The notes: generated from the sequence alone by a model not told the origin. A stretch of 64,000 bases of DNA from an uncultured Candidatus Saccharibacteria bacterium (GCA_964512315.1 CAZEIK010000002.1:45304-109303), one strand, 5' to 3'. Numbered from the stretch's first letter, positions 2,128 to 31,232 are shown. Numbers and translations: made by a program.

Positions 2128-2915
2128 TGCTAGTCAAAGCAAAGAAGTCATTAGGGCAGAATTTTCTTAGGTCAAAGGCAGCACTTTTGGCTATTGTTGA
2201 GTGTTCAAATATCAGCACCAGCGACACTGTTATAGAAATAGGTCCTGGCGAAGGGGTGCTAACTGAAGAACTGCTAAAAACTGGAGCAAAAGTGGTTGCT
2301 ATAGAAAAAGATGACAGATTAATTGAAATTCTAAATCAAAAGTTTTTAGAATATACAAAACAAAGCAAATTCGAACTGTTACATGCTGATGTAACTGATT
2401 TTGACTTTGCTAAGTTAGACAAAAATTATAAAGTAATAGCCAATATACCTTACTACATAACAGGGTTAATAATGAGAAAGTTGATTGATGACGGTGGGGC
2501 ACAATCATTAACACTTCTGGTTCAGCGTGAAGTAGCCGAGAGGGGTTGCGCAAGAGATGGTAAGGGGTCGCTACTTTCTAATTCAATATTGTCATACGGC
2601 GTACCCAAATACGTTAAGACTGTGCCGCGTGGATCATTTGTACCGTCACCCAATGTAGACAGCGCTATTTTATATATTAAGCGCCACGACGCATCAGCCT
2701 TTAGAGACGCGCAGGAAAAAGAGTTATTCTTTGAATTAATACATGCAGGGTTCGCTCACAAACGCAAAACATTATTACACAATTTAAATATATACAATCA
2801 AGAAAAAGGATTGAGCGTAAAATGGGAACAAATAATAGACAGCAAGGTGCGAGCTGAGGATGTGCATTTTGAAGACTGGCTACGTATTGTGCGTGATACA
2901 ATTAAGTTGTGGTAG
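2127..2915 (+). CDS. rsmA: 16S rRNA (adenine1518/1519-N6)-dimethyltransferase
   Basis: SLGQNFL...IEIGPGEGVLTEEL SAM-binding motif typical of KsgA/RsmA. Start overlaps the pcrA stop (TAATG). Confidence 0.9.
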   Translation: MLVKAKKSLGQNFLRSKAALLAIVECSNISTSDTVIEIGPGEGVLTEELLKTGAKVVAIEKDDRLIEILNQKFLEYTKQSKFELLHADVTDFDFAKLDKNYKVIANIPYYITGLIMRKLIDDGGAQSLTLLVQREVAERGCARDGKGSLLSNSILSYGVPKYVKTVPRGSFVPSPNVDSAILYIKRHDASAFRDAQEKELFFELIHAGFAHKRKTLLHNLNIYNQEKGLSVKWEQIIDSKVRAEDVHFEDWLRIVRDTIKLW

Positions 2916-3781
2916 AGAAAACACCGAACAATGACTCTCTTTCTAGAGAAAAAGCTTTTTTGATTCTAGCTGGACTTTTGGCTGTGATTGCATTTCTGAT
3001 TTATGGGCTTTTCCCGGATCAAGCCAAAACACCCGAGATACCCTCTTCTAGTCTTAGCTCCAAAATACAAACATATGATCAGCTGATAAGCCTTGGCCAG
3101 GACTTGAGCGGTAATGGTCAACCAGCATGGAGGGAAATAGTCTTCGGCGACAAGACAAAAAGTGGTGACAACTCAACAACAAGCAACCTTACTACAATAC
3201 TAGCTCGTGACACTATGGCAATAGGAGTGCTATCTAACAAGAACACAGACGTAAATGCTGACTTATATATGTCGGCCCTGGTAGACAGCGCGTCTCAACA
3301 GATAACAGTAAAAGATGTTGGTCAGATCAACGTTTCTAATGACAATTCAAGAGCTGCGCTCAAGGAATACGGTAACAATGCAGCAGTTGTGTTCGGTATG
3401 TTTTTCGGTAATGAGCAAAAAGAGTTAAAAGATTTGCAGAACTATATAAATACCAATAATGCGTCTAACCTGAACAATATAAAATCTCTACAGAAGCAAA
3501 TACAATCTCTCTGTGCGTCATTTAAGACAGTCGCCGCACCTAAAAACATCGCAACTCTACACAGAACACTTCTAGAGCAATGCTTCTACTATAACGACAT
3601 ATTGACAGCCTTTACAAAAGTCGACTCCGACCCAAGCTCGTCTTTGGTTGCTGTGGGGCAGTATCAAGGCATGATAAACAATCAGACTGAACTACTTAGC
3701 AAGATGCGAGACTTTTTTGACTCTAACAATGTCGTGTTCGGCGTGTCTGATTACGGTAGGATTTTTAACAAAAATATATGA
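2909..3781 (+). CDS. membrane-anchored hypothetical protein, first gene of the T4SS-like cluster
   Basis: One N-terminal TM helix (FLILAGLLAVIAFLIYGLF) then a soluble domain. Translationally coupled to flanking genes. No recognisable motif. Confidence 0.45.
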   Translation: MVEKTPNNDSLSREKAFLILAGLLAVIAFLIYGLFPDQAKTPEIPSSSLSSKIQTYDQLISLGQDLSGNGQPAWREIVFGDKTKSGDNSTTSNLTTILARDTMAIGVLSNKNTDVNADLYMSALVDSASQQITVKDVGQINVSNDNSRAALKEYGNNAAVVFGMFFGNEQKELKDLQNYINTNNASNLNNIKSLQKQIQSLCASFKTVAAPKNIATLHRTLLEQCFYYNDILTAFTKVDSDPSSSLVAVGQYQGMINNQTELLSKMRDFFDSNNVVFGVSDYGRIFNKNI

Positions 3782-5433
3782 AAAAAATAATTGCTTCATT
3801 CTTAATAGCTTTTGGACTTTGGACAAACACTGCGTCAGCTTTTATAGTTTTTGACCCTACACAATTCAGTACACAAGTACTACAATATGGGCTAGAAATT
3901 GCTGGCAACATAACAGCTTACCAAAGCATGATAAAAGAGTACGCACTAGACCCGCTCGCTTATGCAATAGCGCAACGTGTTAAGAATCAAATTAAGCAAG
4001 AGATAGTTAAGTGGGCACAAGATGGTGGTAGTGGTAAGCCTCAGTTCCTCGAGAATCCAGAAAGATTCTTCACTAATCTAGCAACTCAGGAGCTAACACT
4101 AGTTAAGCGTGACCTGATGACTAATATTGTTGGTAATGACGCCGTGTTGAAGGCTTTGGTCTCAGGTAATGCCGAAGGGTATGTTAAAAAGTCTTTCCAA
4201 GAATTCATGGTACCAACAACCAACAAAGTGATACAAAATGACATCTGTTCTCCTGCGAAGCTGCAAAAGATGGCTTCGGAGAACGCTGCTGGTGCAGCAG
4301 AATTCGCAAGGCGCTATTGTGGAGCAACAACCAGCACCTCATCTCAGCAGCAGCAATACAAAGACCTTCAGAACTGCTTTGCCAAAGACTTCTCATGTGG
4401 TGGCTGGAACGCCTTTCTGTCTATTACCCAGGACCCTTATCGAAATACAGAGACCGGACGCCTGGCCGTTGCACAGTTACAACTTCAGCAAAATGTAAAT
4501 CAAAAAACAACCAACACCAATAATGAGCTTAATCGTGGAGGAGGATTCTTCAGTCAAAAAGTATGCAAGAAGGGCGCTTTGTTAGAAAAAGATGACCAGG
4601 GCGAGCCGCTACCCAAAGAAAGTCAACTCTGTACCGAGTACGAAACACTCACTCCTGGTGACCAGATAAGGAACCTAACTAATGAAGTATTAGGCGACCC
4701 TCTCAAGCAATTGCAACAGTCAGACGAGATTAGTGAGATTATTGTTAGCGCACTTATGGTGAAACTGCAATCCATAGGTCTACGTCATCTAAAAGATGGT
4801 TTTGATAATCTTATTAGAGGCGCAACCGATGGATCTGGTAGTCTGCGAGACAGCGTGACTGCAGCTGGCGCTCCGAAGGACCCAACAGTAGCCAGCAGCT
4901 CAGTAACACTAAGTAACGCCGACCATCGCAACTTAACAGCGAACATGCTTCAACTTATGAATAGTGTGCTCAAGGAACACTCAACCAACTTAACTGTTGT
5001 ACAAGAAGAATTAACCAAATATCAGAATCTTGCTGACAAAATAGTTCAGATTGAGACCTGTTATCAAGAGAAATCTTCTTGGCTTGCAATGCCGCCACTT
5101 GTAAAAACAACAGTAGACTCACAGAAGCAAATAATAGGCCAGAAAGTCTTGGCTCTTGCTGATGAGTTTTCTACATACAAGGAGAAAGCTGACGACCTTT
5201 CAGCAGCAATAGAGACAGTCACAAGGAGTCGTGACGCCGACGCTATAACCAATATATATAACGCCTTCAATGCGGAGCTTTCTGCTAATTCATATCTAAC
5301 TTCTGCTGTGGCAGACAAGAGAAGGGCGGACAATGAGGAGCTGTACAAACAACTAGACCAACTTTCTACAACTTTTGACTCAATGTTAACCGAGTGTCAA
5401 CAGGCTCAACCAAGTACAGCTGGAGGTAACTAA
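3778..5433 (+). CDS. secreted hypothetical protein (T4SS-associated)
   Basis: Signal peptide MKKIIASFLIAFGLWTNTASAF. 551 aa with a Gln-rich stretch and predicted coiled-coil C-terminal half. Start overlaps the previous stop. Confidence 0.5.
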   Translation: MKKIIASFLIAFGLWTNTASAFIVFDPTQFSTQVLQYGLEIAGNITAYQSMIKEYALDPLAYAIAQRVKNQIKQEIVKWAQDGGSGKPQFLENPERFFTNLATQELTLVKRDLMTNIVGNDAVLKALVSGNAEGYVKKSFQEFMVPTTNKVIQNDICSPAKLQKMASENAAGAAEFARRYCGATTSTSSQQQQYKDLQNCFAKDFSCGGWNAFLSITQDPYRNTETGRLAVAQLQLQQNVNQKTTNTNNELNRGGGFFSQKVCKKGALLEKDDQGEPLPKESQLCTEYETLTPGDQIRNLTNEVLGDPLKQLQQSDEISEIIVSALMVKLQSIGLRHLKDGFDNLIRGATDGSGSLRDSVTAAGAPKDPTVASSSVTLSNADHRNLTANMLQLMNSVLKEHSTNLTVVQEELTKYQNLADKIVQIETCYQEKSSWLAMPPLVKTTVDSQKQIIGQKVLALADEFSTYKEKADDLSAAIETVTRSRDADAITNIYNAFNAELSANSYLTSAVADKRRADNEELYKQLDQLSTTFDSMLTECQQAQPSTAGGN

Positions 5434-5471
5434 CAACCAAACATGCCTATTTTTATGATACACTTTGTATT

Positions 5472-7832
5472 GTGAAAATCTGGCGCGCAATATTAATCTT
5501 AACCTGTTTTTCTATACTTTTTTTCGCGCCACAGATCAGTTATGGCCAAGCTGTGCAACCTTGTGACACAGCCGAAACAATAGGTACTACATATCCATGC
5601 AGAGACAGCCAAGGCAGAAGTTGGGGTAGTTTTGCTGAAAGGCAAAACGCTATGAACGCTGCCGGGGCAGCGGAAATGGCTAAAAAAAATGAATCTAAGC
5701 CAACAGGTCGAGTTCAAGTTTGTCCAGCTGCTGCATATGAAAAGTTTTCTCTCGCAAACCTAGCCTCTGTTGGGATTTTGCCAGCTCTTTGTGGTATTGT
5801 AGATTTCACTCTTTCTGGAATAGGGTGGGCCTTGGCTGGTTTAATGTATCTTTGTGCAACACTTTTTGACTATTCTTTCGATAATTTTGTGTTACACATA
5901 GCAACAATGTTCCAGGATGAAGACGGAGTTAACAAGGCTTATATATATGGCGCTTGGACAGCTATACGAGATTTAGCCAACATTGCAGCATTCTTTGCTG
6001 CTGTGTACGCCGGATTCTTACGAATTATAGGACAAAATCAAGAAGACTTTCGTAAGGCTGTTGCCAAGCTTCTACTCTTCGCATTACTTACTAACTTTTC
6101 TTTTGCTTTGTCAAAGTTCGCAATAGATGTTTCTAATGTTATCTCGCTGCAAATATATGGCGCTGCTTCTGGTTATAAGTTTTCTGGGAACGTTAGCACT
6201 AGTTCACAAGGAATGCTTTCAAGCGACTACGGCATTAGTACTGCCTATATGAAGCAGATGGGAATATCTGCTTTTGTGCAGGACACGTCACAAGTAAATC
6301 CGAACTCTGCTTTTAAGAACCTAGACTCTCTGACTGTTGTTTTTGTTTCTTATATTTTCTTTATTTTTGCGGGTTGGCAATTTTTAAGTATGGCGATTTT
6401 TATTTTAACGAGAAGCTTTTTATTAATTGCTAGTGTTATTTTTTCTCCGCTGATGTTTATTGGAGGGCTTGTGCCAGCTTTAGACAAAGCTCATGACAAG
6501 TGGCGAGAGACATTTTTTGGTAATTTGGTTGTTGCTCCTATATTGGCCATATTTACTTGGTTAGGTCTTCAGATTTTAAAGGGTGCCAATGAGACAACTT
6601 TAGGAATTATTGGCGACGGCAGCATACAAGATATGTTAAAGCAGATTGCCATGCTTGCTCTTACAGGAATATCTTTATATGTCGGCAAAAAATTTGCTGA
6701 GCAAGCCTCGGGGGCGGTTGGGCAATTTGCAGTAAAGGTCTTAGGTGGAGCGGTGGGTGGGGCGGCGATGGCTGTTGGTACTGCGGGTACCGGATTCGTA
6801 GCTCGTGCCGGCATGGCTCGTGCGGCAGCGATGGCTGGTAATGTTGGCAAGAAGTGGGCAACACAAGAGGGCGCAGGTAGAGCCAAAAAATTCGCAGGAG
6901 GGCTACTTCTTAAGGGTGGGGAGAGGATGGAGAAGACTCAAATATTCGGCCGCTCTGCTTATGATGTTAGAAAAGGGATTGAGGATAAGGTCGCAGATAA
7001 GCGCAATACAGTATTGAGGGAGAATCGTATGGCAGCCAGGAACCTAGGGTGGACAGACAGGTTAGAGCAAGCCAAGAGCGCTGATGAGGTGGCATATATG
7101 GAGCAACAAATCAAACGTGGCACTACATATTCGAGGGATACACATGACGCAGAGATAGCAGCGCTCAAGAACAAGCCAATACAAAGAGCTTCTGCTTCTG
7201 AGCTGCGTGTACTAGATAAAGACTTAGACAAGGCCCGTGATTTAGATGAGAAGATAAAGATAAAAGATTCCACTGTTGCTACACAGATACAAAATGGTCA
7301 GAAAGCGTTAGATGACGAATATGGAGATATAATAAAAACAAGAACAGAATATCTTGAAAATCAAAAGCGTGGCAACGCAACAGCAGAAGAGAGAAAGAAA
7401 ACTGAAGACTATATAGCCACCACAAGAAAAACTTTAGCCGATAAGAAGGCTGAATTAGAAAAGCAATTAACGGAACAAAAGAACTCTGACACTTATTATC
7501 AAGACCTACAAAATCAACTAAAAGTTTTACAAGATGATTACTCTAAAACAACCACAGCCTATAAATTAGGCTCAGCTGTTGGTGTTATGAATGAGACGCA
7601 GAGGCAGGCTGGTGAGCAGGATTTGGCTGCAATTAAGGGAGCAATATCAACTTTGGGGAGCATAAAACCTTTCACTACCGAGTTCGACCAGCCCAATTTA
7701 GCCCCTGGTCAAGCTACAACTTTCCAAAATATACAAAAAAGCTCTGGCGGTGAACCATTTAACACGCTGACACCAAAACAAGCAGACTCTATTGCTTCAA
7801 AATTAAGAGGCTTTAAGAAAGCGAAACAATAA
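5472..7832 (+). CDS. VirB6/TrbL-like polytopic membrane protein with a long C-terminal coiled-coil extension
   Basis: GTG start. Signal-like N-terminus, then at least 6 hydrophobic helices and a Gly/Ala-rich segment, followed by a roughly 300-aa charged coiled-coil tail. Sits upstream of the VirB3/VirB4 homologues. Confidence 0.55.
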   Translation: MKIWRAILILTCFSILFFAPQISYGQAVQPCDTAETIGTTYPCRDSQGRSWGSFAERQNAMNAAGAAEMAKKNESKPTGRVQVCPAAAYEKFSLANLASVGILPALCGIVDFTLSGIGWALAGLMYLCATLFDYSFDNFVLHIATMFQDEDGVNKAYIYGAWTAIRDLANIAAFFAAVYAGFLRIIGQNQEDFRKAVAKLLLFALLTNFSFALSKFAIDVSNVISLQIYGAASGYKFSGNVSTSSQGMLSSDYGISTAYMKQMGISAFVQDTSQVNPNSAFKNLDSLTVVFVSYIFFIFAGWQFLSMAIFILTRSFLLIASVIFSPLMFIGGLVPALDKAHDKWRETFFGNLVVAPILAIFTWLGLQILKGANETTLGIIGDGSIQDMLKQIAMLALTGISLYVGKKFAEQASGAVGQFAVKVLGGAVGGAAMAVGTAGTGFVARAGMARAAAMAGNVGKKWATQEGAGRAKKFAGGLLLKGGERMEKTQIFGRSAYDVRKGIEDKVADKRNTVLRENRMAARNLGWTDRLEQAKSADEVAYMEQQIKRGTTYSRDTHDAEIAALKNKPIQRASASELRVLDKDLDKARDLDEKIKIKDSTVATQIQNGQKALDDEYGDIIKTRTEYLENQKRGNATAEERKKTEDYIATTRKTLADKKAELEKQLTEQKNSDTYYQDLQNQLKVLQDDYSKTTTAYKLGSAVGVMNETQRQAGEQDLAAIKGAISTLGSIKPFTTEFDQPNLAPGQATTFQNIQKSSGGEPFNTLTPKQADSIASKLRGFKKAKQ

Positions 7833-7833
7833 C

Positions 7834-8433
7834 ATGAATCCAGAACTTCGTAATGCAATTGATATAGAGATAAGAAAGTCTTCAAAAGAGATGCAGGACT
7901 TTTTATTCGGGGAATATTTCAAAGACACAGTGAAATTAATTGAAAGAGTTAATAAGTTTACAGAAGACCAAGCTGTATCATTAGAATTAGAGGTTACAAT
8001 GTGCCTACTCGGAATTAGTGATTATCCATCTCTAGAAGAGGCTTTTAAAGGTGAACTAGGGCAGGGTGGGCAAGTTGCAAATGAAGCGACTGTAAGGCAG
8101 GCTGTGAAGGATGTAGAAAATTATATTCTATCCAAGGCTCCAAAAGTTGCCCCAGCTACTCAGGTTGCCACTATAGAAGTTAAACCAGAAATAGAAAGTA
8201 GCACAACAAACACCGCTGAGCCTTCTTCTAAAAATCTGCACGAAATACTTTATTCTCAATTAGAGGTAAACAAGGCCTCAGAAATGGAAACAAATACAGT
8301 ACCTAACCCAGAAGCAAAACCAGAAACTTTTGAAGATATAAAAGATAAAGTCGAAGAAAAAGCCCTACAAAAACCACTAGATTTCTACAGAGAAAAGGTT
8401 GATGAAGAGGATAAGAAAATGAAGACTTTATAA
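7834..8433 (+). CDS. acidic hypothetical protein
   Basis: 199-aa ORF. Acidic, no TM segment. Tightly packed inside the T4SS cluster. Confidence 0.4.
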   Translation: MNPELRNAIDIEIRKSSKEMQDFLFGEYFKDTVKLIERVNKFTEDQAVSLELEVTMCLLGISDYPSLEEAFKGELGQGGQVANEATVRQAVKDVENYILSKAPKVAPATQVATIEVKPEIESSTTNTAEPSSKNLHEILYSQLEVNKASEMETNTVPNPEAKPETFEDIKDKVEEKALQKPLDFYREKVDEEDKKMKTL

Positions 8434-8452
8434 TTTTTGATATAATTAAGTC

Positions 8453-8827
8453 GTGCAATTCAGAGTACCACAATTCATAGATATAGAAGACAAGATAATT
8501 GGGCCATTAACCTGGAGGCAGTTTGCTTATTGCCTTGGTGCTGTTGGTGTTACTTATCTAGCTATGAGGTTTATCCCGAGCAACATAATAGCTCTTATTG
8601 TTATATCTCCTGTAGCTGGCTTATTCCTAGCTCTAGCTTTTGTAAAAATAAACAATCAACCCTTTGTTGAAGTTATGGAGCATGCAATTAACTACTTTTC
8701 TCGCAGCAATATATATACTTGGCAAAGAAGAAATAATAACATTCAGGTTATAACCCCAGATCCGAGCACTCTCAAACAAAAGTCTTTGAGCTTAGACACC
8801 AAAAACGTGGAAACATCTTCTGAATAA
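8453..8827 (+). CDS. PrgI/VirB3-like small membrane protein
   Basis: 124 aa with two adjacent TM helices (FAYCLGAVGVTYLAMRFIP / IIALIVISPVAGLFLALAFV). Lies two genes upstream of the VirB4-like ATPase, as in Gram-positive conjugation-type T4SS. Confidence 0.55.
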   Translation: MQFRVPQFIDIEDKIIGPLTWRQFAYCLGAVGVTYLAMRFIPSNIIALIVISPVAGLFLALAFVKINNQPFVEVMEHAINYFSRSNIYTWQRRNNNIQVITPDPSTLKQKSLSLDTKNVETSSE

Positions 8828-8855
8828 AATCACTTACTGATGATATACTGAATCC

Positions 8856-9476
8856 ATGCAGGGTAGTGCCTCACAAGGATTTGTGCCTATTAAAAACATA
8901 CGTGACGGACTCATCGAATTACAAAACGGTGAGTATAGAGCCGTACTTATGACCAACTCACTAAATCTTTCTCTTAAGGGTGAGGATGAGCAGACCGCGA
9001 TATTGACCCAATTCCAAAACTTTCTTAACTCTCTAGAGTTTTCTGTGCAGATCTTTGTGAAGTCTCGTCGTATGGATATAGAGCCATATATAAATCTTTT
9101 AGAAGAGAGATTGGCTGTTGCGGAGGGTGAGCTGATCAAGCTACAAATCACTGAATATATAAGCTATATCAAGACCTTTTCAGAAGAGACAAATATAATG
9201 TCTAAACAATTCTTCGTTGTTGTTCCGTACACGCCAGCAGTTATTAATCAAAGCTCTGTACCCAGCCTTCCTTTTGGTAACAATGATGCCCTTGCAGCAA
9301 AAGCTGATGCAGCTTTTCAAGAAGTGTACAGACAGATGGAGCAAAGAATACTTGTGGTCTCTAGTGGGCTCACAAGAACTGGATTACGTGTTGAGAGGTT
9401 GCAAAGTGATGAAGTTGTGAGTCTTTTCTACAGCCTTTTCAACCCAGGAGCAGAACATAAAGCTATAATTAATTAA
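8856..9476 (+). CDS. hypothetical protein, possibly a detached N-terminal module of VirB4
   Basis: 206-aa soluble ORF ending 4 nt before the VirB4-like gene. 206+602 aa approximates a full-length VirB4. This is inference only. Confidence 0.4.
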   Translation: MQGSASQGFVPIKNIRDGLIELQNGEYRAVLMTNSLNLSLKGEDEQTAILTQFQNFLNSLEFSVQIFVKSRRMDIEPYINLLEERLAVAEGELIKLQITEYISYIKTFSEETNIMSKQFFVVVPYTPAVINQSSVPSLPFGNNDALAAKADAAFQEVYRQMEQRILVVSSGLTRTGLRVERLQSDEVVSLFYSLFNPGAEHKAIIN

Positions 9477-9480
9477 AACT

Positions 9481-11289
9481 ATGGGAATACTTGATTTTAT
9501 TTTAGGCAAAGACACAACGGTAGCAAACACAGCAGCCACTACACCTTCTGCGGAACAAAATACCGGGCCGAGTCTGCAAGATATAGTGGCGCCATCTGCT
9601 CTTAAAATAGAGTCTAAGGATTTTATTCTTGGTGACGTTAAAGGTAGAACATATTTTGTAATGTCTTACCCTAGATATCTAACAGATAATTGGTTGTCGC
9701 CGTTAGTTAATCTAGACAAAGTGTTCGACGTTGGTATACATATATCACCAGTAGATACCGCTGAGGTGATGAAGAAGTTCCAACGTAAAGTGGCTGAGGT
9801 TCAAAGCCAGATAATGATAAGAGAGGAGAAGGGTATGGTTCGTGACCCAATGCTAGAGACTGCTTATGAGGACCTAGAAAGTCTGCGTGACGACCTAATG
9901 CAAGCACAAGAGAAAATGTTCGAGGTGGGGCTATATATAACAATATACGCAAGAGACGACAAAGATCTAGACCGTGTAGAAAAAGAAATAAAATCAATAC
10001 TAGAAAGTAAGTTAATAACCGTTCGTCCTGCATACTTCCAGCAAGGCGAGGGAATACTTACAACAATTCCATTAGGTAAAGATGATTTGAAACAGGTTAC
10101 CAAGCTTAATACTTCACCATTATCTTCTATATTTCCATTTGTTTCTTTTGATCTAACTAGCGATAGAGGTATATTGTACGGCATCAACAGACATAACGGC
10201 TCACTGTTACTGTTCGACAGATTCTCAATGGAGAACTACAACTCTATAATATTTGCCAAGTCTGGTGCCGGAAAGTCTTTTGCGACAAAGCTAGAAATAT
10301 TGCGCACATTAATGTTCGACACCCAGGTTATTATTATAGACCCTGAGCGTGAGTACGAGACATTGACTGATGCAGTTGGTGGCAGATACTTTAACATATC
10401 ACTAACCAGTGATAATCACATTAATCCTTTTGACCTGCCGATCCCAGCAGAAGATGAGAGTATGAGCGAGGTTCTGCGCAGCAACATTGTAACGCTGGTT
10501 GGGTTGTTCCGTGTTATGTTTGGAGGACTTACCCCCGAAGAAGACGCAATCATAGACCGCGCCATAACTGAGACGTACGCCCTCAAAGACATCACACCTG
10601 ATGCGGACTTCACCAAGCTAGACCCACCACTTCTTTCTGACTTTGAAATGGTTTTGGGCGGTCTCGATGGCAGTGAGTCGTTAATAGAAAGACTTCAAAA
10701 ATACACCAAAGGCTCTTGGGCTGGATTCCTTAATAACCCAACAAATGTAAATATAGACCAGAAATGTGTCTCTTTCTCGATACGCGACATGGAAGACGAA
10801 CTCAAGCCGGTGGCAATGTTTCTTGTTACTCATTACATTTGGAACTCTGTAAGAAAAGAGTTACGTAAGAGGCTTCTAGTTGTGGACGAGGCGTGGATAA
10901 TGATGAAGTCTGAAGATACAGCAAGCTTCTTGTATGGTCTTGCAAAGCGTGGTCGTAAATATTACTTGGGGTTAGCAACAATAACACAAGACGTGAACGA
11001 CTTCCTTAAGAGTGAGTATGGAGTGCCGATCATCACCAACTCATCTCTTCAGCTTCTTTTGAAGCAGTCTCCAACTTCTATAGATTTGATACAGAAGACT
11101 TTTAACCTTACAGACGAAGAGAAATTCTTACTCCTTGAGTCTAATGTGGGCGAGGGTATATTCTTTGCTGGACTCAAGCATGTGGCTGTAAAGATTATCG
11201 CCAGCCACACCGAAGAGCAAATAGTAACTAGTGACCCTTCTGAAATACTTCGTGTCAAGGAGTTAAAGCAAGGCTTAACCAACTTATAA
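9481..11289 (+). CDS. VirB4/TraE/PrgJ-like T4SS ATPase
   Basis: Walker A IIFAKSGAGKSFATK and Walker B LLVVDEAWIMM, with a following GLATITQD motif. 602 aa. Confidence 0.85.
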   Translation: MGILDFILGKDTTVANTAATTPSAEQNTGPSLQDIVAPSALKIESKDFILGDVKGRTYFVMSYPRYLTDNWLSPLVNLDKVFDVGIHISPVDTAEVMKKFQRKVAEVQSQIMIREEKGMVRDPMLETAYEDLESLRDDLMQAQEKMFEVGLYITIYARDDKDLDRVEKEIKSILESKLITVRPAYFQQGEGILTTIPLGKDDLKQVTKLNTSPLSSIFPFVSFDLTSDRGILYGINRHNGSLLLFDRFSMENYNSIIFAKSGAGKSFATKLEILRTLMFDTQVIIIDPEREYETLTDAVGGRYFNISLTSDNHINPFDLPIPAEDESMSEVLRSNIVTLVGLFRVMFGGLTPEEDAIIDRAITETYALKDITPDADFTKLDPPLLSDFEMVLGGLDGSESLIERLQKYTKGSWAGFLNNPTNVNIDQKCVSFSIRDMEDELKPVAMFLVTHYIWNSVRKELRKRLLVVDEAWIMMKSEDTASFLYGLAKRGRKYYLGLATITQDVNDFLKSEYGVPIITNSSLQLLLKQSPTSIDLIQKTFNLTDEEKFLLLESNVGEGIFFAGLKHVAVKIIASHTEEQIVTSDPSEILRVKELKQGLTNL

Positions 11290-11290
11290 A

Positions 11291-12262
11291 ATGAAACCTT
11301 TAATATTAATCTTTAGTTTAGTTCTTAGTCTGCAAGCAGTTATGGCCCAGAACCTTCTACCTGACCCTATTACCATAAGTACCAACCCAGAAGCGCCAGC
11401 ACCAGGGCAGAGTGTAACAGTCTCAGCACAAAGCCTAACAGCAGACCTGAACAAGTCCGACATATCATGGAGCGTGAATGGAAGATTTGCTTCTTCTGGT
11501 TTTGGTTTAAAAAGTTTAAATCTAAATCTGCCTTTCGGTAACCAGGCAATATTAATAGAGGTTACAGTCAAGTCGACAACAGGCGAAACATTTTACGCAA
11601 AGAAAACAATTAGCCCAAAGAGATTAATTTTAATTACAGAGGCGGTGGATAGTTATGTTCCCTATTGGTACGGAGGTAAGGCTGAAGTTGCAAATGCTGG
11701 TAGATTTAGAGTTTATGCTTATGCTGAGATATATTCAGGTAGCAAAAGACTTCAACCTTCTGAGCTGCTTTACAAATGGTCAGTAAGGGACGAGCCATTG
11801 GGTGACTCTTCTGGTGTGGGGCGTGACACATTAACTTACAAATTATTAGATGAGTACGGGGACGACGTGCCAGTCTCAGTAACAGTTTCTCCTGTTAGCA
11901 GTGATGAAGAGGTAACGGAAACAACCAACATAAAGCCTAAAAATCCTGAGCTTCTAGCTTACTTGGGGAATGAGTATGGTGATGTTTCAAATTTAAATAC
12001 AATTAAAAATAACCAGACTATTAAAAATAAAACATTTTCTGTTGTTTTGGAGCCTTTCTTTTTTTCAACAGACTCATATAAACAAAAAAACTTAGAATAC
12101 TCTTGGTATGTTAATAACAATCCAGACACCGGTAGCTCTAATTATGTAAAGCTCTTCCGCCTAGCAGAAAATGCTACTGGTACAGCAATAATTGATGTTT
12201 CAGTTAAGCATTTAACTAGACTATTCCAAGAAGCTAAAAATAGAATTAGTATAAATTTCTAA
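11291..12262 (+). CDS. secreted hypothetical protein (T4SS-associated)
   Basis: Signal peptide MKPLILIFSLVLSLQAVMAQ. 323 aa, beta-rich composition. Confidence 0.5.
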   Translation: MKPLILIFSLVLSLQAVMAQNLLPDPITISTNPEAPAPGQSVTVSAQSLTADLNKSDISWSVNGRFASSGFGLKSLNLNLPFGNQAILIEVTVKSTTGETFYAKKTISPKRLILITEAVDSYVPYWYGGKAEVANAGRFRVYAYAEIYSGSKRLQPSELLYKWSVRDEPLGDSSGVGRDTLTYKLLDEYGDDVPVSVTVSPVSSDEEVTETTNIKPKNPELLAYLGNEYGDVSNLNTIKNNQTIKNKTFSVVLEPFFFSTDSYKQKNLEYSWYVNNNPDTGSSNYVKLFRLAENATGTAIIDVSVKHLTRLFQEAKNRISINF

Positions 12263-12290
12263 AAAATATTTGTGTTAAACTTTACTTAAC

Positions 12291-13142
12291 ATGAATGGAC
12301 AGAATCCTGTTGAATACGATCTTCTTGAACCCCTAACCGGCCTTACTGATGAGGAGGGGTTAACTTCTGTGCCTGTTTCTCCAGAAGGGATATCTGACTA
12401 CTTTAATCAGACTTATAACTTTCTATTAATACTTATTGCTATTACGGCTGTTTTTTATCTTATATATGGCGGCATGGTATACCTAACAACCGACATAGCC
12501 AACAAACAAAAACAAGGTAAAGAGATAATCATTCGTGTCATAACTGGCTTAATTTTTGTTTTTACTGTGTGGATAATACTTAACTCTATTAACCCCGCGA
12601 TACTTAATAACAAGCTAACGTTTGCCATTCTTGATTCTACTACAAACAACCCTGGTCCAAGTAATCCTCCCAACAATCCACCTAACAACCCTCCACCCAA
12701 CACAACAGGTGAGCAGTGTACCACAATACCAGAGTCTGACTTAGTTGTTGTGCAACCTTCCAGAAAACTAAAAACTGCTGCTGCCGACAAGTTTAACCAA
12801 ATGTACATGGCGGCACAAAAAGATGGCATCAACCTTAAACTAACATCTGCATATAGAAGTCCTGCTGACCAGTTACGTATCTGGAACGAGAATGGTTGCA
12901 AACTAGTAAACAGTAAAGCTGTTTGTTTTGGTGGCAAAAGCGTTGCTGTTCCTTGTCAGCTTGGCGGTAACGGGTCTAACCACTCTACTGGTTATGCGGT
13001 GGATATTAATGTGGGTTGTATTAATGGTCAGTCTAACTGTAACACTAAGACCTATCAGTGGCTAAAGTCTAATGGTAGTAAGTATAATTTTAACAATAAC
13101 CTGCCTAGCGATCCTGTGCACTGGTCGCCTTCTGGAAGATAA
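12291..13142 (+). CDS. membrane-tethered peptidase M15 (VanY/LAS-type D-Ala-D-Ala carboxypeptidase-like) cell-wall hydrolase
   Basis: Two N-terminal hydrophobic helices, then a Pro/Asn linker (PSNPPNNPPNNPPPN). C-terminal domain carries SAYRSPADQ, HSTGYAVDI (HxxGxAxD) and a distal DPVHW histidine, which are the LAS/M15 zinc-peptidase signatures. Confidence 0.65.
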   Translation: MNGQNPVEYDLLEPLTGLTDEEGLTSVPVSPEGISDYFNQTYNFLLILIAITAVFYLIYGGMVYLTTDIANKQKQGKEIIIRVITGLIFVFTVWIILNSINPAILNNKLTFAILDSTTNNPGPSNPPNNPPNNPPPNTTGEQCTTIPESDLVVVQPSRKLKTAAADKFNQMYMAAQKDGINLKLTSAYRSPADQLRIWNENGCKLVNSKAVCFGGKSVAVPCQLGGNGSNHSTGYAVDINVGCINGQSNCNTKTYQWLKSNGSKYNFNNNLPSDPVHWSPSGR

Positions 13143-13143
13143 T

Positions 13144-14208
13144 ATGCAAAATGACAACTTAAAAAAGAAAATATTAATTAGTGGTGGAGTGTTTATTGTT
13201 TTTATAATAATTTTTTCTTTATATTTAATATTTAAGGGCGGTGATACCGTGCAAACAACACAAAATAATGACAATAAAATTAACTTCCCAAGCTTATCTT
13301 TTGGTAACAAATTATTGTTAGATAATTCTGATTCTGAGGAGTCAAACAACTTAGAGACCTCAAATGAACTTAAAGATATTTATCTGGTGTGGGCAGGGCA
13401 GACAATAGGAGCTGCGTCTCTTGATGATGGTTCTGTGGCTTTTGTAGACAAAGCTTCTGGTGAGTTAAGAAAGTCTTCTGGACCTAACTACGAAGACACA
13501 AGCTTAATAACAACATTAAGACCGAATTGTTTCTCAGCTAAAATTTCCAACCCAGGATCTGTGGCGCTAATCCTTTGTGAAGATGGACTATATCTTTGGT
13601 CTAACTCTAGATTAAGCATTCTTAATCAGAACGCCTTTGATTATGAATTTATTAAAGGGTCTAATGATTTTGTTTTCTTTGTGAGAAGCTCATATGGAAC
13701 AGAAATATATCTTTCTAAACAAAACAAAATAACTAAGCTTTACACTTTACCGCTATTCGAAATAACAACGTTGGGGGCAGATGTTGATTATATTTACATT
13801 TCTGAAAAGCCTGCAGCAAGTCAAAATCTATTTGTTTACTCTTTTAAGAATAAGGATTTATATTTCATTAGGGACCTAAATTCTCAAGGTTTTGGTTTGT
13901 ATCAGAAGGGTTACGTTAAGGAGAAGTGTGCCAACTTTAACGAAAGCAGTAATTTGTGTTTCTTTAACTCACCAGAAAGTTTTAACTCTACAGCTTGGAG
14001 AAAGGGGGTGTTCTCGTCTAAAGACTCTGTATATTTCTACTCACTTGTAGATCAGAAATATACACTTAACACCAACTTATCTAAAGTTATAGACGCTGTA
14101 TCTGTTAACTATAATTCTAATGGTGGAATTGTTGACGTGATAGATAAGAACACTTTAAATCTTTTTGTTATAAAATCTGACGAATTGTTACAGGAGCACG
14201 AGCAATAA
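13144..14208 (+). CDS. membrane-anchored hypothetical protein (last gene of the T4SS-like cluster)
   Basis: ORF track starts at 13072 and overlaps the previous gene. The internal ATG at 13144 directly follows the upstream stop and is followed by a TM helix (ILISGGVFIVFIIIFSLYLIF). 355 aa from that start. Confidence 0.45.
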   Translation: MQNDNLKKKILISGGVFIVFIIIFSLYLIFKGGDTVQTTQNNDNKINFPSLSFGNKLLLDNSDSEESNNLETSNELKDIYLVWAGQTIGAASLDDGSVAFVDKASGELRKSSGPNYEDTSLITTLRPNCFSAKISNPGSVALILCEDGLYLWSNSRLSILNQNAFDYEFIKGSNDFVFFVRSSYGTEIYLSKQNKITKLYTLPLFEITTLGADVDYIYISEKPAASQNLFVYSFKNKDLYFIRDLNSQGFGLYQKGYVKEKCANFNESSNLCFFNSPESFNSTAWRKGVFSSKDSVYFYSLVDQKYTLNTNLSKVIDAVSVNYNSNGGIVDVIDKNTLNLFVIKSDELLQEHEQ

Positions 14209-23478: not shown

Positions 23479-25173
23479 TTATTTTTCGTACAGATCAACA
23501 ACTGTTCCCAACTCCTCTAGCGAGGTGACCCCGTCTAGTACCTTCATTATACCATCTTCTCTCATTGAGGGTATCATTTGTTTTGCCGCTACAGCTTTTA
23601 TCTCTCTTTCACCAGCACCACCAACAGCAGCAGTCTCTATTTCTCCTGTCATTTGTATTGCTTCGTATATACCAGTTCTACCTTTGTAACCATTGTTGCA
23701 CTTATCACAACCCCCATCCTTGGCTACAAATATTTGATATATTTTTTGTGGTGGATGAGCTACGTCTTTACCTTCGGAGACCATGTTACCAATTACATCA
23801 GTTATTAATTTTGACTCTTCTGCTGTTGCGTCTCTTCTTTCTTTACAATTTACACACAACTTCCTACACAATCTTTGTGCCATTACAAGAGTAAGCGACG
23901 AGGCTAATGTCTTAGCATCAACCCCGAGGTCTATCATGCGAGGTATTGATCCTGCTGCCGAGTTGGTGTGTAGGGTAGAGAGTACTATGTGACCAGTTAG
24001 TGCCGCGCTCGCTGCTACCTTTGCTGTGTCTTCATCACGGATCTCACCCACCATAATTACATCTGGGTCTTGGCGTAATGCAGCACGCAGTCCGAGTAGA
24101 AAAGTGTAATCTTTTTTCTGGTCGACTTGTGTCTGGGTTATTCCGTCTAAGTGATACTCGATAGGGTCTTCGATAGTGATTATTTTTTTCTCAGATGTGT
24201 AGACTTTACGAAGACAGGCATACAAAGTTGTAGACTTACCTGATCCAGTTGGTCCAGTAGTTAAGACCATACCATAAGGCTTCTTTATTGCGCGGTCGAG
24301 TACACCTAACACCTTTTCATTCATACCTAACTGGTCAAATCCAACATTAGCAGCCTTAGGGTCCAAGATTCTCATTACATAATTTTCACCATAATTGCCA
24401 GGCACAACCGACACACGCACTTCTATTTTGTCTCCGCCCCAATCAATTTCAAATCTTCCATCTTGCGCAGACTTTTGTATAGAGAGCTTCATCCCGGCGA
24501 GCAGTTTAAGACGACTATTAAGTAAATTAAAAGTCTTTTCATCAGTGAAGAATATATCTTGTAGGGCGCCATCTATACGATATCTAACTTTCACAGTGCC
24601 ATCTTCTGGTTCTATATGTATATCGCTCGCGGTGAAGTGTATGGCACCAACTAGTGACATCTCAATTATTTTCGAAACTCTCTCTCTGTCACTATTCATA
24701 ATAACTTGTTCCAACTTATCCCTGAATGTCTGCAGGTTGCTAACATCCTCCAGCAACTCCCTTAAGTGAGACTCGCTTAGGTTGACCAACCCCCTTTCTA
24801 CAACCGTCCCAGCATCCAGGTCAGCGTAACGCGCCCACACTTTTTTAACTGACGTATCAGATGCAATATATATTATCGGTTTATCACCTTTGTTAGAAAG
24901 CTTCGCCAAGTACTCAACAACATCGTCACGAGTCGGGTCTGATATTGCTATGTGAAGCTGTCTACCAACCATTTTAAATGGAGCAAAGGAGTATTTTTGT
25001 GCATCTTCTAAGGGGAGTGCTGCTAGCGCATCCATTTCAGGAGACTTAATACGAAGGTCTATGTAAGGGAGACCTGTTTGGGCAGCCAGGAACTCCGCCT
25101 CTTTTTCTTCATCTTCCGCAGCCAATTTGTTCAGGCTTGTTTTGATTTTTAGCTCTGCAATATCATCGATCAT
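23479..25173 (-). CDS. pilB: type II secretion/type IV pilus assembly ATPase (GspE/PilB family)
   Basis: Walker A LTTGPTGSGKSTTLYACL, Asp/His boxes and a C-terminal tetracysteine (CxxC...CxxC). 564 aa. Confidence 0.85.
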   Translation of the reverse strand: MIDDIAELKIKTSLNKLAAEDEEKEAEFLAAQTGLPYIDLRIKSPEMDALAALPLEDAQKYSFAPFKMVGRQLHIAISDPTRDDVVEYLAKLSNKGDKPIIYIASDTSVKKVWARYADLDAGTVVERGLVNLSESHLRELLEDVSNLQTFRDKLEQVIMNSDRERVSKIIEMSLVGAIHFTASDIHIEPEDGTVKVRYRIDGALQDIFFTDEKTFNLLNSRLKLLAGMKLSIQKSAQDGRFEIDWGGDKIEVRVSVVPGNYGENYVMRILDPKAANVGFDQLGMNEKVLGVLDRAIKKPYGMVLTTGPTGSGKSTTLYACLRKVYTSEKKIITIEDPIEYHLDGITQTQVDQKKDYTFLLGLRAALRQDPDVIMVGEIRDEDTAKVAASAALTGHIVLSTLHTNSAAGSIPRMIDLGVDAKTLASSLTLVMAQRLCRKLCVNCKERRDATAEESKLITDVIGNMVSEGKDVAHPPQKIYQIFVAKDGGCDKCNNGYKGRTGIYEAIQMTGEIETAAVGGAGEREIKAVAAKQMIPSMREDGIMKVLDGVTSLEELGTVVDLYEK

Positions 25174-28670: not shown

Positions 28671-31232
28671 TTGTCAAATATAGATTATAATATGAAAACC
28701 CTAAAAAGTGTAATAAATAAAGGAAATATGAAAAAAATATTATTTAGTTTAATTGGTTTCTCGATGCTTGTTTCTGGGTTTTCTTTTGTAGTGTTTGCCC
28801 AGGATTGTTCTGATTGTGGATATAACTACACCGACGAATATAATGGACCTGGTTATAATTACGGATACAACTATACCGACGAGTATCAAGGGCCAGGGTA
28901 TAATTATAATTTTAATAATTCGTGGGATACAAATACGCAAATAAATTGTACTTCTTGTGGTTTGAATTACAACTATACCGATGAATATCAAGGACCAGGT
29001 GGTTACGGATATAATTTTACAGACAGTTACCCTGCACCAACAACACCAACTAATACTGGGGGGATATATGTTGGTGACTGTAGTTATACTAACGATTGCT
29101 ACACACCACAGACTACAACATATGTACCGACATATACGAACACTACTACATATGTTCCTACTTATACCAATACATATGTTCCGGTATATACAAACGGTAG
29201 TACATATTATGGTACTTATTACACCCAACCTACTTACACCAATACTTATAATCCTGTATACACGACATGTCCTTCGAATGCTTACTGTCCACCAACAACA
29301 ACGCCAGCTCCTGTATACCGCGTTCCAACCAACTCATATCCACCTTCTACAGTAACAACACCTAGCAATAATTCTAGCTATTGGAATTATAACTACAACA
29401 GTACGACCAACACTAACACAACAACTAATACTAATAATAGTGTTACATACGGTCCAGCTTACACTTATACAAATAACACTTGCGCAGGAACAAATAACTG
29501 TAATACAACAGTTAACAACACAACTAACACAACAAATACAACAGGAAGCAATAATGTAAATTATTATTATGGTAACACCACAAACCCAACGCCTGTATGT
29601 ACCAATGGTGCGACCAATTATCCAGGATGTACAATATGTCCAACAGGTCTTGTTTACAGTAATGGTTATTGTATAACTAACATTACTACTAATAACTGTC
29701 CTACTAATTACTATTGGAATGGAACAAGTTGTGTACCACAAACTAGAACATGTCCGAATGGAACAGTGGTGAGTATATGGGATGTTTGTCCAAATCAAAC
29801 ACAAACATGTTGGAATGGAACAGTTATACCAGTATCGTCAGTATGTCCTTCTCAATACAAAACATGTCCAAACGGAACAGTGGTACTAATAAGCCAGCAA
29901 TGTTACAAGACATGTTCTAATGGAACAACGGTACCTGACACACAAGTGTGTTACAGAGTGTGTCCAAATGGGCAATCTATACCGGAGACACAATATTGTC
30001 CATCGTATAACAATTATCCAACAGTAGACATTAACGCTAACCCGAGCGTGATAAGCCGTGGAGGTAGCACAACATTAACTTGGACAAGTCAGAACGCTTC
30101 ATACTGTACTGCATCTAATGGCTGGTCAGGAAGTGTTAACCTGTCAGGATCAACACAGAGAGTGAATGTCTTAGATGCTACAACTTATTCTATTAGATGT
30201 TGTAACTCTCAGAATCAATGTGCAACAGACAGCACAACAGTGAATGTTACTCAGCCATTACCAACATCACATCGCGTGGTAACAACATCAGCAACAGGCA
30301 TAACAAATACTAGTGCTCGTTGTAATGGTGTTGGAATTATTTCAAACGGAGTTGTATCTAACGGATGGTTCGAGTACGGTGAGACCACATCGCTAGGCAA
30401 AGTAACTAACAGTGCCTCAATCGGCAATCAACCATCTTCACCTTTCTCTAACACTATTAATAACTTAAAACCAAATACTACATATTATTGTAGAGCGGTA
30501 ATGAGTAATGCTAATGGTACATATAGAGGTGAGATAGTCTCGTTCAAGACAACTGGTTCAGTTATTAACTATGTGCCAGTAACGCCAACAAAAACTCCAA
30601 ACAAAACAGTCGTTGTTTGTACTGACGAAACAGGAACAAAAGAGACTTTAAAAGAAGGAGAGAAGTTGATGACTATAACTTTAGACAAAAGATCAGGTAA
30701 CACAACACCGGGATCTACGGTTGATTATCGTGTGCATTATCTGAACACAAGTAAGATCAAGTTAAGTAATGCAACGGTCAAAGTTGTAATACCTAGCGAG
30801 ATGGAGTTCGTATCTAGTAATCGTGGTATGTATGATGCAGACACAAGAACTGTAACAGCAGACCTAGGCACTGTGGGTGCTGGATCCTCAGATGACTTGA
30901 TCGTCAGAGTAAAAGTTAAAGATAATGCCGAGACTAACAAGTCAGCAGTAATGAGTAGCTATATTTCATACGACGCATTAGACCAAAAAGGCCAAACAAT
31001 TCGTGATGAGAACACTTCTTATGTAATCAGCACAATAACCAAAGCTGAGCAGAATAATAATGTTTCAAATACAGACAATAATAATTCTGCACAAAAATCA
31101 ACACAAACAGATAGATCGTATTTGCCTAATACAGTTCTAGAGTGGCTAGCAATAATCGCATTAATATTCGTTCTGATTGTCTTAGGTAAGGCAATCTGGA
31201 CAGGATTAAAAGGCGAGGAGCACAGTCACTAG
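28671..31232 (+). CDS. large repetitive Cys/Asn/Thr/Tyr-rich cell-surface protein with FN3-like and DUF11-like domains and a C-terminal membrane anchor
   Basis: Signal or TM at the N-terminus. Tandem NYTDEYQGPG repeats, TYVPTYTNT repeats and at least 5 C-P-N-G-T-V-V...C repeats. WFEYGETTSLG...TTYYCRA (fibronectin-III-like) and DYRVHYLNTS...TVKVVIP (DUF11-like). C-terminal hydrophobic helix LAIIALIFVLIVLG. Confidence 0.7.
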   Translation: MSNIDYNMKTLKSVINKGNMKKILFSLIGFSMLVSGFSFVVFAQDCSDCGYNYTDEYNGPGYNYGYNYTDEYQGPGYNYNFNNSWDTNTQINCTSCGLNYNYTDEYQGPGGYGYNFTDSYPAPTTPTNTGGIYVGDCSYTNDCYTPQTTTYVPTYTNTTTYVPTYTNTYVPVYTNGSTYYGTYYTQPTYTNTYNPVYTTCPSNAYCPPTTTPAPVYRVPTNSYPPSTVTTPSNNSSYWNYNYNSTTNTNTTTNTNNSVTYGPAYTYTNNTCAGTNNCNTTVNNTTNTTNTTGSNNVNYYYGNTTNPTPVCTNGATNYPGCTICPTGLVYSNGYCITNITTNNCPTNYYWNGTSCVPQTRTCPNGTVVSIWDVCPNQTQTCWNGTVIPVSSVCPSQYKTCPNGTVVLISQQCYKTCSNGTTVPDTQVCYRVCPNGQSIPETQYCPSYNNYPTVDINANPSVISRGGSTTLTWTSQNASYCTASNGWSGSVNLSGSTQRVNVLDATTYSIRCCNSQNQCATDSTTVNVTQPLPTSHRVVTTSATGITNTSARCNGVGIISNGVVSNGWFEYGETTSLGKVTNSASIGNQPSSPFSNTINNLKPNTTYYCRAVMSNANGTYRGEIVSFKTTGSVINYVPVTPTKTPNKTVVVCTDETGTKETLKEGEKLMTITLDKRSGNTTPGSTVDYRVHYLNTSKIKLSNATVKVVIPSEMEFVSSNRGMYDADTRTVTADLGTVGAGSSDDLIVRVKVKDNAETNKSAVMSSYISYDALDQKGQTIRDENTSYVISTITKAEQNNNVSNTDNNNSAQKSTQTDRSYLPNTVLEWLAIIALIFVLIVLGKAIWTGLKGEEHSH

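Follow-up and report, generated by a model that had tools for sequence, protein, structure and literature searches.

The stretch of DNA considered here is a 64-kb window (64,000 nucleotides; GCA_964512315.1, CAZEIK010000002.1:45304-109303) deposited under an uncultured Candidatus Saccharibacteria bacterium, and its subject is a gene cluster at positions 2909-14208 with the look of a type IV secretion system (T4SS). A listing of the window's open reading frames (ORFs) gives ten co-directional, closely packed genes on the + strand, referred to below as g1 to g10:

2909..3781, + strand: g1, 290 aa; one N-terminal transmembrane (TM) anchor (residues 17-35), extracytoplasmic part mainly helical.
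3778..5433, + strand: g2, 551 aa; secreted, with a Sec signal peptide ending in ASA; C-terminus a helical bundle.
5472..7832, + strand: g3, 786 aa; begins with a signal peptide, crosses the membrane about seven times between residues 92 and 366 and ends in a long coiled coil.
7834..8433, + strand: g4, 199 aa, acidic; neither signal peptide nor TM segment; a conserved D-[PF]-Y-R-E motif towards the C-terminus.
8453..8827, + strand: g5, 124 aa; PrgI/VirB3-like, two TM segments.
8856..9476, + strand: g6, 206 aa; TrsD-like, corresponding to the N-terminal domain of VirB4 as a separate gene.
9481..11289, + strand: g7, 602 aa; VirB4 ATPase of the monoderm (MPF_FATA / CD1110) type, without the N-terminal domain.
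11291..12262, + strand: g8, 323 aa; secreted (signal peptide); three Ig/PKD-like beta-sandwich repeats of about 100 aa, each with a Y-x-W motif.
12291..13142, + strand: g9, 283 aa; T4SS_pilin domain (34-98), Pro/Asn linker and a VanY (M15) D-Ala-D-Ala carboxypeptidase domain (158-271).
13144..14208, + strand: g10, 354 aa; N-terminal TM anchor (10-28) and a beta-rich extracytoplasmic domain; its start agrees with an independent gene call.

That independent gene call, made on a 15-kb contig of identical sequence in a public sequencing run, contains the same ten genes, the sole mismatch being a later start for g8. The spacings, as listed, are −7, −4, 38, 1, 19, 28, 4, 1, 28 and 1 nt. On the 5' side, on the same strand and overlapping, lie a UvrD/PcrA-type helicase gene (pcrA) and rsmA; on the 3' side come yidC, rnpA and rpmH on the − strand, followed by dnaA and dnaN. 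The cluster has a GC content of 0.401, and the remainder of the window one of 0.398. A scan for promoters and terminators gave counts no better than chance, with no strong + strand terminator within the array, and an Rfam scan found seven tRNAs in the window, none of them in the cluster. The ten genes form one operon-like array, fixed beside the replication origin. An earlier interpretation made from the DNA alone (hereafter the sequence-only reading) had described ten co-directional, coupled genes of host-like composition between rsmA and yidC, and the ORF listing, the independent gene call, the spacings of −7 to +38 nt and the GC values all agree with that description.

To assign the ten proteins to families, the curated cut-offs of Pfam and NCBIfam profiles were taken as the standard. 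Relatives of the locus come from a VirB4 scan of one genome per GTDB species, in which at least 576 species genomes contained a relative; the related loci discussed below are the best 80, whose VirB4 proteins are 65-94% identical to that of the window.

The ATPase that the sequence-only reading called VirB4-like is well founded: g7 scores 372.9 bits against NCBIfam conju_CD1110 (cut-off 325), with profile positions 181-732 of 752 aligned, and also matches P-loop_TraG (E = 1e-25). In the translation both Walker motifs are intact, A as GAGKS and B as LLVVDEAW. A hidden Markov model (HMM) of the family detects PrgJ of pCF10 at E = 4e-57, TrwK of R388 at 9e-9 and TrbE of R751 at 9e-3; on this similarity g7 is of the MPF_FATA lineage, far nearer to PrgJ than to TrwK or TrbE. 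The N-terminal part of VirB4 that the g7 alignment lacks is matched by g6, which ends 4 nt before the start of g7, and VirB4 is therefore split into two genes. The matches of g6 are to NCBIfam VirB4_plasma (positions 105-233, E = 4.9e-12), to conju_CD1110 (positions 11-78, E = 8e-5) and to the TrsD/TraD family NF041427 (positions 29-200 of 201, E = 1.4e-5), the last at 25 bits and thus below its cut-off of 200; a protein identical to g6 has PF26593, TraC-like, on record. The split is not peculiar to the window, as a g6-type protein is a separate ORF in 81 of 81 loci.

Two membrane partners accompany the ATPase. The PrgI/VirB3-like nature of the two-TM protein g5 is secure (PF12666 PrgI, E = 1.9e-11, 44.8 bits, cut-off 27), as the sequence-only reading had it, and its family was recovered in 78 loci. 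For g3, called VirB6/TrbL-like in the same reading, topology and position fit, whereas all profile scores are sub-threshold: the best are to CD3337/EF1877 (E = 1.3e-3) and to the Mbov_0396 TM protein of integrative and conjugative elements (ICEs; E = 9e-3). Among 45 orthologues, matches of the same kind recur, to Mbov_0396 in seven (best 1e-7), MMCAP2_0566 in six, CD3337/EF1877 in four and Pfam TrbL in one, and the place of g3 on the 5' side of the PrgI and VirB4 genes is kept in 66 loci. On the strength of topology, position and the sub-threshold matches of orthologues, we regard g3 as a probable, not proven, 'extended' VirB6-like channel subunit.

The cell-wall peptidase of the cluster, g9, had been recognized as membrane-tethered from the DNA alone. 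Its VanY domain is clear (PF02557, E = 2.1e-16, 60.4 bits, cut-off 25), and the tether turns out to be a VirB2-like, two-TM T4SS_pilin domain (PF18895, E = 9.9e-10, 38.8 bits, cut-off 26.6), in which a hydropathy scan places TM segments at residues 45-63 and 79-97. The pilin-like domain is present in 37 of 51 g9 orthologues, while the enzymes at their C-termini vary: NlpC/P60 in six, SLT-type transglycosylases in five, VanY/M15 in four, and YkuD and DUF2272 in one each. Positional orthologues combining T4SS_pilin with a differing enzyme are found, for example, at L014:12871-14616, L027:13541-15862 and L029:12899-14482 (L numbers denote related loci). It looks as if the catalytic domain has been repeatedly exchanged on a VirB2-like anchor in the service of a VirB1-type, wall-opening function, and g9 is a probable VirB1 analogue.

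The window carries one pilin-like gene only. In several relatives a second protein with a pilin domain, about 330 aa long and without a counterpart in the window, is encoded between the g10-family gene and yidC:

L007:15010-15996, second pilin-domain protein.
L012:15003-16040, second pilin-domain protein.
L013:15512-16501, second pilin-domain protein.
L018:15077-16084, second pilin-domain protein.
L023:14957-15949, second pilin-domain protein.
L024:15097-16098, second pilin-domain protein.

Directly before the VirB6-like gene stands g2, in an order that parallels trbJ-trbK-trbL and trwJ-eex-trwI. The mature g2 protein begins FIVFDPTQF immediately after ASA, much as TrwJ of R388 (AQGIPVFDGT) and TrbJ of R751 (AGIPVIDGTNL) do, and the N-termini of its relatives are likewise TrwJ/TrbJ-like, examples being AQWVVFDPANF and AQGIPSFDAANL. 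At E ≤ 1e-3 this large family counts 2447 representatives, and when 84 of them were compared with NCBIfam, TrbJ models were the sole recurrent matches (in ten, four and two members; best E = 4.4e-7). Two of 45 orthologues match DUF4141, the name given to an unnamed gene adjoining traJ, or between traK and traG, in Bacteroides conjugative transposons. No full-length TrbJ/VirB5 profile match and no VirB5 fold was seen for g2, a Foldseek search of its model against the PDB gave nothing at E ≤ 1e-3, and tblastn of its N-terminus against plasmids was equally without a match. Taking the mature N-terminus and gene order together, we propose g2 as a candidate VirB5-like component.

The remaining lineage-specific proteins are g1, g4, g8 and g10. 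The g1 family occurs at the same position in 49 related loci in iterative searches; the protein has no Pfam or NCBIfam match, and its profile searched against PDB sequences returned nothing. The probably cytoplasmic g4 belongs to a family present in 73 loci, in whose alignment Y185 is invariant and D183 and E187 nearly so; Pfam and NCBIfam hold no relative of characterized function, and the PDB search was again empty. The g8 family lies directly 3' of virB4 in 74 loci, with W60, W163 and W272 invariant, and the matches among 45 orthologues (BiPBP_C in six, Ig_3 in four, PKD_6 in three, PKD_3 in two) are in keeping with its three repeats. The g10 protein belongs to a family of about 430 aa found at the same position in 64 loci. 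Its family profile matches TolB in 12 of 14 hits against PDB sequences, weakly but consistently (best E = 0.008), and PG_binding_1, a peptidoglycan-binding domain, occurs in six of 45 orthologues; the extracytoplasmic domain is possibly a TolB-like beta-propeller. Corresponding PDB searches with the profiles of g2, g3 and g8 returned only coiled-coil or Ig noise.

Thus, of the five lineage-specific proteins, g1, g2, g8 and g10 are exported or anchored outside the membrane, while g4 has neither export signal nor TM segment. This modifies the sequence-only reading, which had counted six secreted or anchored proteins with no recognizable homology. A hydropathy scan finds neither signal peptide nor TM segment in g6, so that g4 and g6 do not belong in that class; g6 is moreover TrsD-like, and two of the others have weak or partial leads. 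For the rest, the description stands.

Tblastn and iterative profile searches show the order rsmA, g1-g10, yidC, dnaA, dnaN in most of the 80 related loci, with g1 to g9 recovered in 49-81 loci. In 51 loci the median identity is 69% for VirB4, 53% for DnaA, 31% for DnaN and 31% for YidC. VirB4 is better conserved than DnaA in 49 of these 51, an unusually strong constraint for a secretion ATPase; as the loci were picked by VirB4 similarity, the fair comparison is the one within each locus. The best 80 genomes bear names of Patescibacteria type (Nomurabacteria, Paceibacterota, Yonathbacteria, Parcubacteria, Minisyncoccia or 'Candidatus Saccharibacteria') or are plain 'bacterium'. The closest relatives (L002, L003 and other records with CA* prefixes, at 92-94% VirB4 identity) were, like the window, deposited as 'uncultured Candidatus Saccharibacteria bacterium'. 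These records interleave by identity with metagenome-assembled genomes of Nomurabacteria, Paceibacterota and Yonathbacteria, and the Saccharibacteria label looks generic or wrong.

Genes for mobility and coupling were sought with phmmer in all stop-to-stop frames of the window, with three coupling proteins (TrwB, PcfC, TraG), two relaxases (TrwC, PcfG), the Tn916 integrase and a resolvase as queries; the best E value in the six frames was 0.24, and scans of the window's ORFs likewise revealed no type IV coupling protein (T4CP), relaxase or integrase. Queries with VirB11 matched a single gene, at 23479-25173 (−), which encodes the window's sole VirB11-superfamily protein and lies beside a GC-rich island described below. 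We reject this PilB-like ATPase as a VirB11, given its MshEN N-domain and its full-length match to T2SSE (E = 1.5e-119), which mark it as an ATPase of type IV pili or type II secretion systems. The statement of the sequence-only reading that the window has no integrase, relaxase, VirD4 or VirB11 is therefore upheld by both the six-frame search and the ORF scans.

Because only 213 bp on the 5' side of pcrA fall inside the window, the upstream region, where that reading had suggested looking for a coupling ATPase, was examined in close relatives (about 70% identity in g2). The roughly 6 kb 5' of pcrA in these relatives contain no mobility gene, T4CP or relaxase; they hold rpsO, an NYN-domain gene, a ComM-like ATPase gene, a LysM-M23 peptidase gene and an unannotated gene of 655-699 aa. 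The last of these, which has no Pfam match, is directly 5' of pcrA in L086-L089 (at about 4290-6400) and is preceded by a divergent LysM-Peptidase_M23 gene; the 213 bp with which the window opens may be the tail of a homologue of this unannotated gene.

We find, then, no relaxase, T4CP or integrase in the window, no foreign composition, and no patchy distribution among related species. As it is without a relaxase and without a nearby coupling protein, we infer that the system is not conjugative. We consider it very probable, on the evidence of family assignments and gene order, that the locus is a chromosomal T4SS of Patescibacteria that derives from monoderm conjugation machinery and now stands outside any mobile element.

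Such a system has been described before. The survey of 3,035 Patescibacteria genomes by Quinonero-Coronel et al. 2025 (PMC12102498) reports a VirB4 clade that is monophyletic and lies within MPF_FATA; its partners are TrsD, PrgI/VirB3, VirB6 and VirB2-like proteins; relaxases almost never occur, T4CP homologues are distant from virB4, and in Paceibacteria and Microgenomatia the genes adjoin dnaA, dnaN, rnpA, ksgA and rpmH. The window shares with the Paceibacteria arrangement its MPF_FATA-type VirB4 with TrsD directly 5', PrgI/VirB3, a VirB2-like pilin domain and a probable VirB6-like protein, its lack of a relaxase and of a nearby T4CP, and its place beside dnaA, dnaN, rnpA, rpmH and ksgA (rsmA); we see no essential difference between the two. 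In a 2025 review the Patescibacteria systems figure as a new branch within the T4SS superfamily. In Saccharibacteria, Wang et al. 2023 (PMC10633639) showed that an origin-proximal counterpart, SEML1_0006-0019 of Southlakia epibionticum ML1, is essential for epibiotic growth and has no recognizable coupling protein or relaxase. The core of the ML1 locus is similarly ordered, with VirB6-like, PrgI, TrsD-like and VirB4 proteins in turn and a cell-wall hydrolase on the 3' side, and PF18895 pilins and the lack of a recognized relaxase or coupling protein are common to both loci. However, the pilins of ML1 form an array of six stand-alone proteins, its hydrolase is of the lysozyme type and it encodes an NTF2-like (VirB8-like) protein, whereas the window has a single pilin-like domain fused to VanY and no recognizable NTF2-like protein.

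Among mobile systems, the Prg/Pcf system of pCF10 (MPF_FATA) offers the PrgJ match at 4e-57, a PrgI homologue, a membrane-anchored wall hydrolase and a polytopic VirB6-like protein encoded 5' of PrgI. It also has the T4CP PcfC, the relaxase PcfG, the VirB8-like proteins PrgL and PrgD, the adhesins PrgB and PrgC, and an unsplit VirB4. Those extra parts were not found in the window, which differs further in its split VirB4, its VirB2-like domain and its chromosomal, non-mobile nature. There is also a likeness to the Mycoplasma ICE, whose adjacent families (Mbov_0395, pilin-like; Mbov_0396, TM; Mbov_0397, VirB4) include the best sub-threshold matches of g3, g6 and g9, all with scores under the NCBIfam cut-offs. 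Mycoplasma ICEs are mobile, with TraG/VirD4 and a DDE transposase.

The system itself, its origin-side position and the absence of a relaxase were thus already described in 2023-2025, and the locus is no new kind of system. The sequence-only reading of a minimal T4SS in the core genome is right but not new, the same picture being given in PMC12102498 and PMC10633639. What we add is small. The main text of PMC12102498 has neither a pilin-VanY fusion nor the swapping of hydrolases on a pilin-like anchor, and it notes no TrbJ-like N-terminus for the protein encoded 5' of the VirB6-like gene; its supplement lists a few scattered VirB5 matches.

Several points weigh against our identification of the locus as a non-mobile Patescibacteria T4SS. 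The VirB6 assignment of g3 is under every curated threshold, and no VirB8-like or NTF2-like protein is recognized by Pfam or NCBIfam among the ten. When the family HMMs were searched against single reference proteins of R388, pCF10 and R751, the result was informative for VirB4 only, and nothing convincing was obtained for PrgL or TrwG; the test is insensitive, however, and since even PrgI was missed, these negatives carry no weight. In most genomes VirD4 homologues are encoded far from virB4 (PMC12102498), and a coupling protein may therefore be encoded elsewhere. Finally, the essentiality experiment concerns the Saccharibacteria system alone.

If the locus is indeed such a T4SS, its parts suggest how it might work. 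The split VirB4 (g6 and g7), the VirB3/PrgI protein g5 and the VirB6-like g3 would constitute the cytoplasmic-membrane translocon, with VirB4 powering the assembly of an envelope-spanning conduit. The tethered hydrolase g9 would locally open the organism's own cell wall, in the role of VirB1. With its TrbJ/VirB5-like N-terminus, g2 would dock on g3, and the Ig-like g8 and the propeller-like g10, together with g1 and g2, would form or anchor the extracellular part of the conduit. The machine would then move macromolecules at the site of contact with the host cell.

The direction of this movement separates two readings, either of which fits the sequence itself. Tentatively, we favor the uptake of host material slightly over the export of effectors, on account of the organism's nutritional dependence and of a 2026 preprint that reports host RNA uptake, together with T4SS-like tubes reaching the host, in the cultured relative strain OT8. 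In its specific form the uptake reading, which we hold to be a real possibility though short of an even chance, sees a DNA or RNA uptake machine like ComB (Helicobacter) or Ced (Sulfolobales), bringing in nucleic acids of the host to supply nucleotides to an organism that cannot make its own. The idea has been put forward in PMC12102498 and PMC11665869, and the absence of a relaxase and nearby T4CP, the OT8 observations, and the dispensability of ComEC in S. epibionticum, where nucleotides must nevertheless be imported, speak for it. There is also a weak match of VirB4 to CedB (E = 5e-11), but its 41.9 bits are far under the membership cut-off of 700; moreover, Pfam and NCBIfam reveal no nucleic-acid-binding domain in the ten proteins. 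The uptake reading in any case concerns the direction of transport, not the identity of the system.

Somewhat less probable, in our judgment, is that the locus is directed at the host cell as an exporter of effectors or proteins, or as an adhesion pilus, comparable to the T4CP-less Ptl of Bordetella and VirB of Brucella. Wang et al. (PMC10633639) proposed protein export or an alternative role, the VirB2-like and possibly VirB5-like parts point to a pilus, and four of the five lineage-specific proteins (g1, g2, g8 and g10) are exported or surface-anchored. These exported proteins, however, evolve fast and yet are positionally conserved as structural parts are, unlike variable cargo, and no candidate effectors or secretion signals are known. 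A further reading, which we think unlikely, is that the Paceibacteria system is a monoderm T4SS in which an entire pilus module of diderm style was retained or gained; g2 would be a true VirB5/TrbJ seated on g3 as in R388, and the VirB2-like domain of g9, freed from the hydrolase, would polymerize to build the host-piercing tube seen by cryo-electron microscopy in cultured relatives.

That the cluster is a decaying or domesticated ICE lying near the origin by chance, with relaxase, coupling protein and integrase either missing by now or encoded a little beyond the window's edge, is a very improbable explanation: the VirB4, PrgI and TrsD families do otherwise occur on monoderm conjugative plasmids and ICEs, and the window shows just 213 bp 5' of pcrA, but the arrangement and chromosomal position of the ten families are unchanged across dozens of species at only about 50% DnaA identity, VirB4 is more constrained than DnaA, the composition is host-like, and neither the relatives' upstream 6 kb nor the window yields a mobility gene. 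Together, the conserved order and place and the constraint on VirB4 rule out a recently acquired element, and the conclusion of the sequence-only reading, a minimal T4SS of the core genome rather than a recent ICE, is supported by the order rsmA-cluster-yidC-dnaA kept in dozens of related species.

Two other regions of the window deserve mention. Between 25300 and 27900 there is a GC-rich island of about 2.6 kb, with a GC content of 0.50-0.59 against a background of about 0.40, which may be foreign DNA or an assembly chimera. The small secreted or membrane proteins that it encodes have no Pfam match: two paralogous secreted proteins (156 and 139 aa) with a common C-x-GC-x-DPN motif, a lipoprotein-like protein of 102 aa and an Ala/Pro-rich one-TM protein of 318 aa. 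At 28671-31232 lies the gene for an 853-aa surface protein rich in Cys, Thr, Asn and Tyr, which is anchored by a C-terminal TM segment and weakly matches DUF11; it is a candidate adhesin.

Patescibacteria, which live on other cells, represent a large part of bacterial diversity. Few of their machines have been proved essential to this way of life; the origin-proximal T4SS is one, the proof coming to date from Saccharibacteria alone. The window provides a clean, complete example from the Paceibacteria branch, and its ten conserved families, five of them unannotated, amount to a parts list for structural and genetic work. Within this list, the TrbJ-like N-terminus of g2 and the swapping of hydrolases in g9 are leads on how a pilus-like conduit may pass through a monoderm wall.

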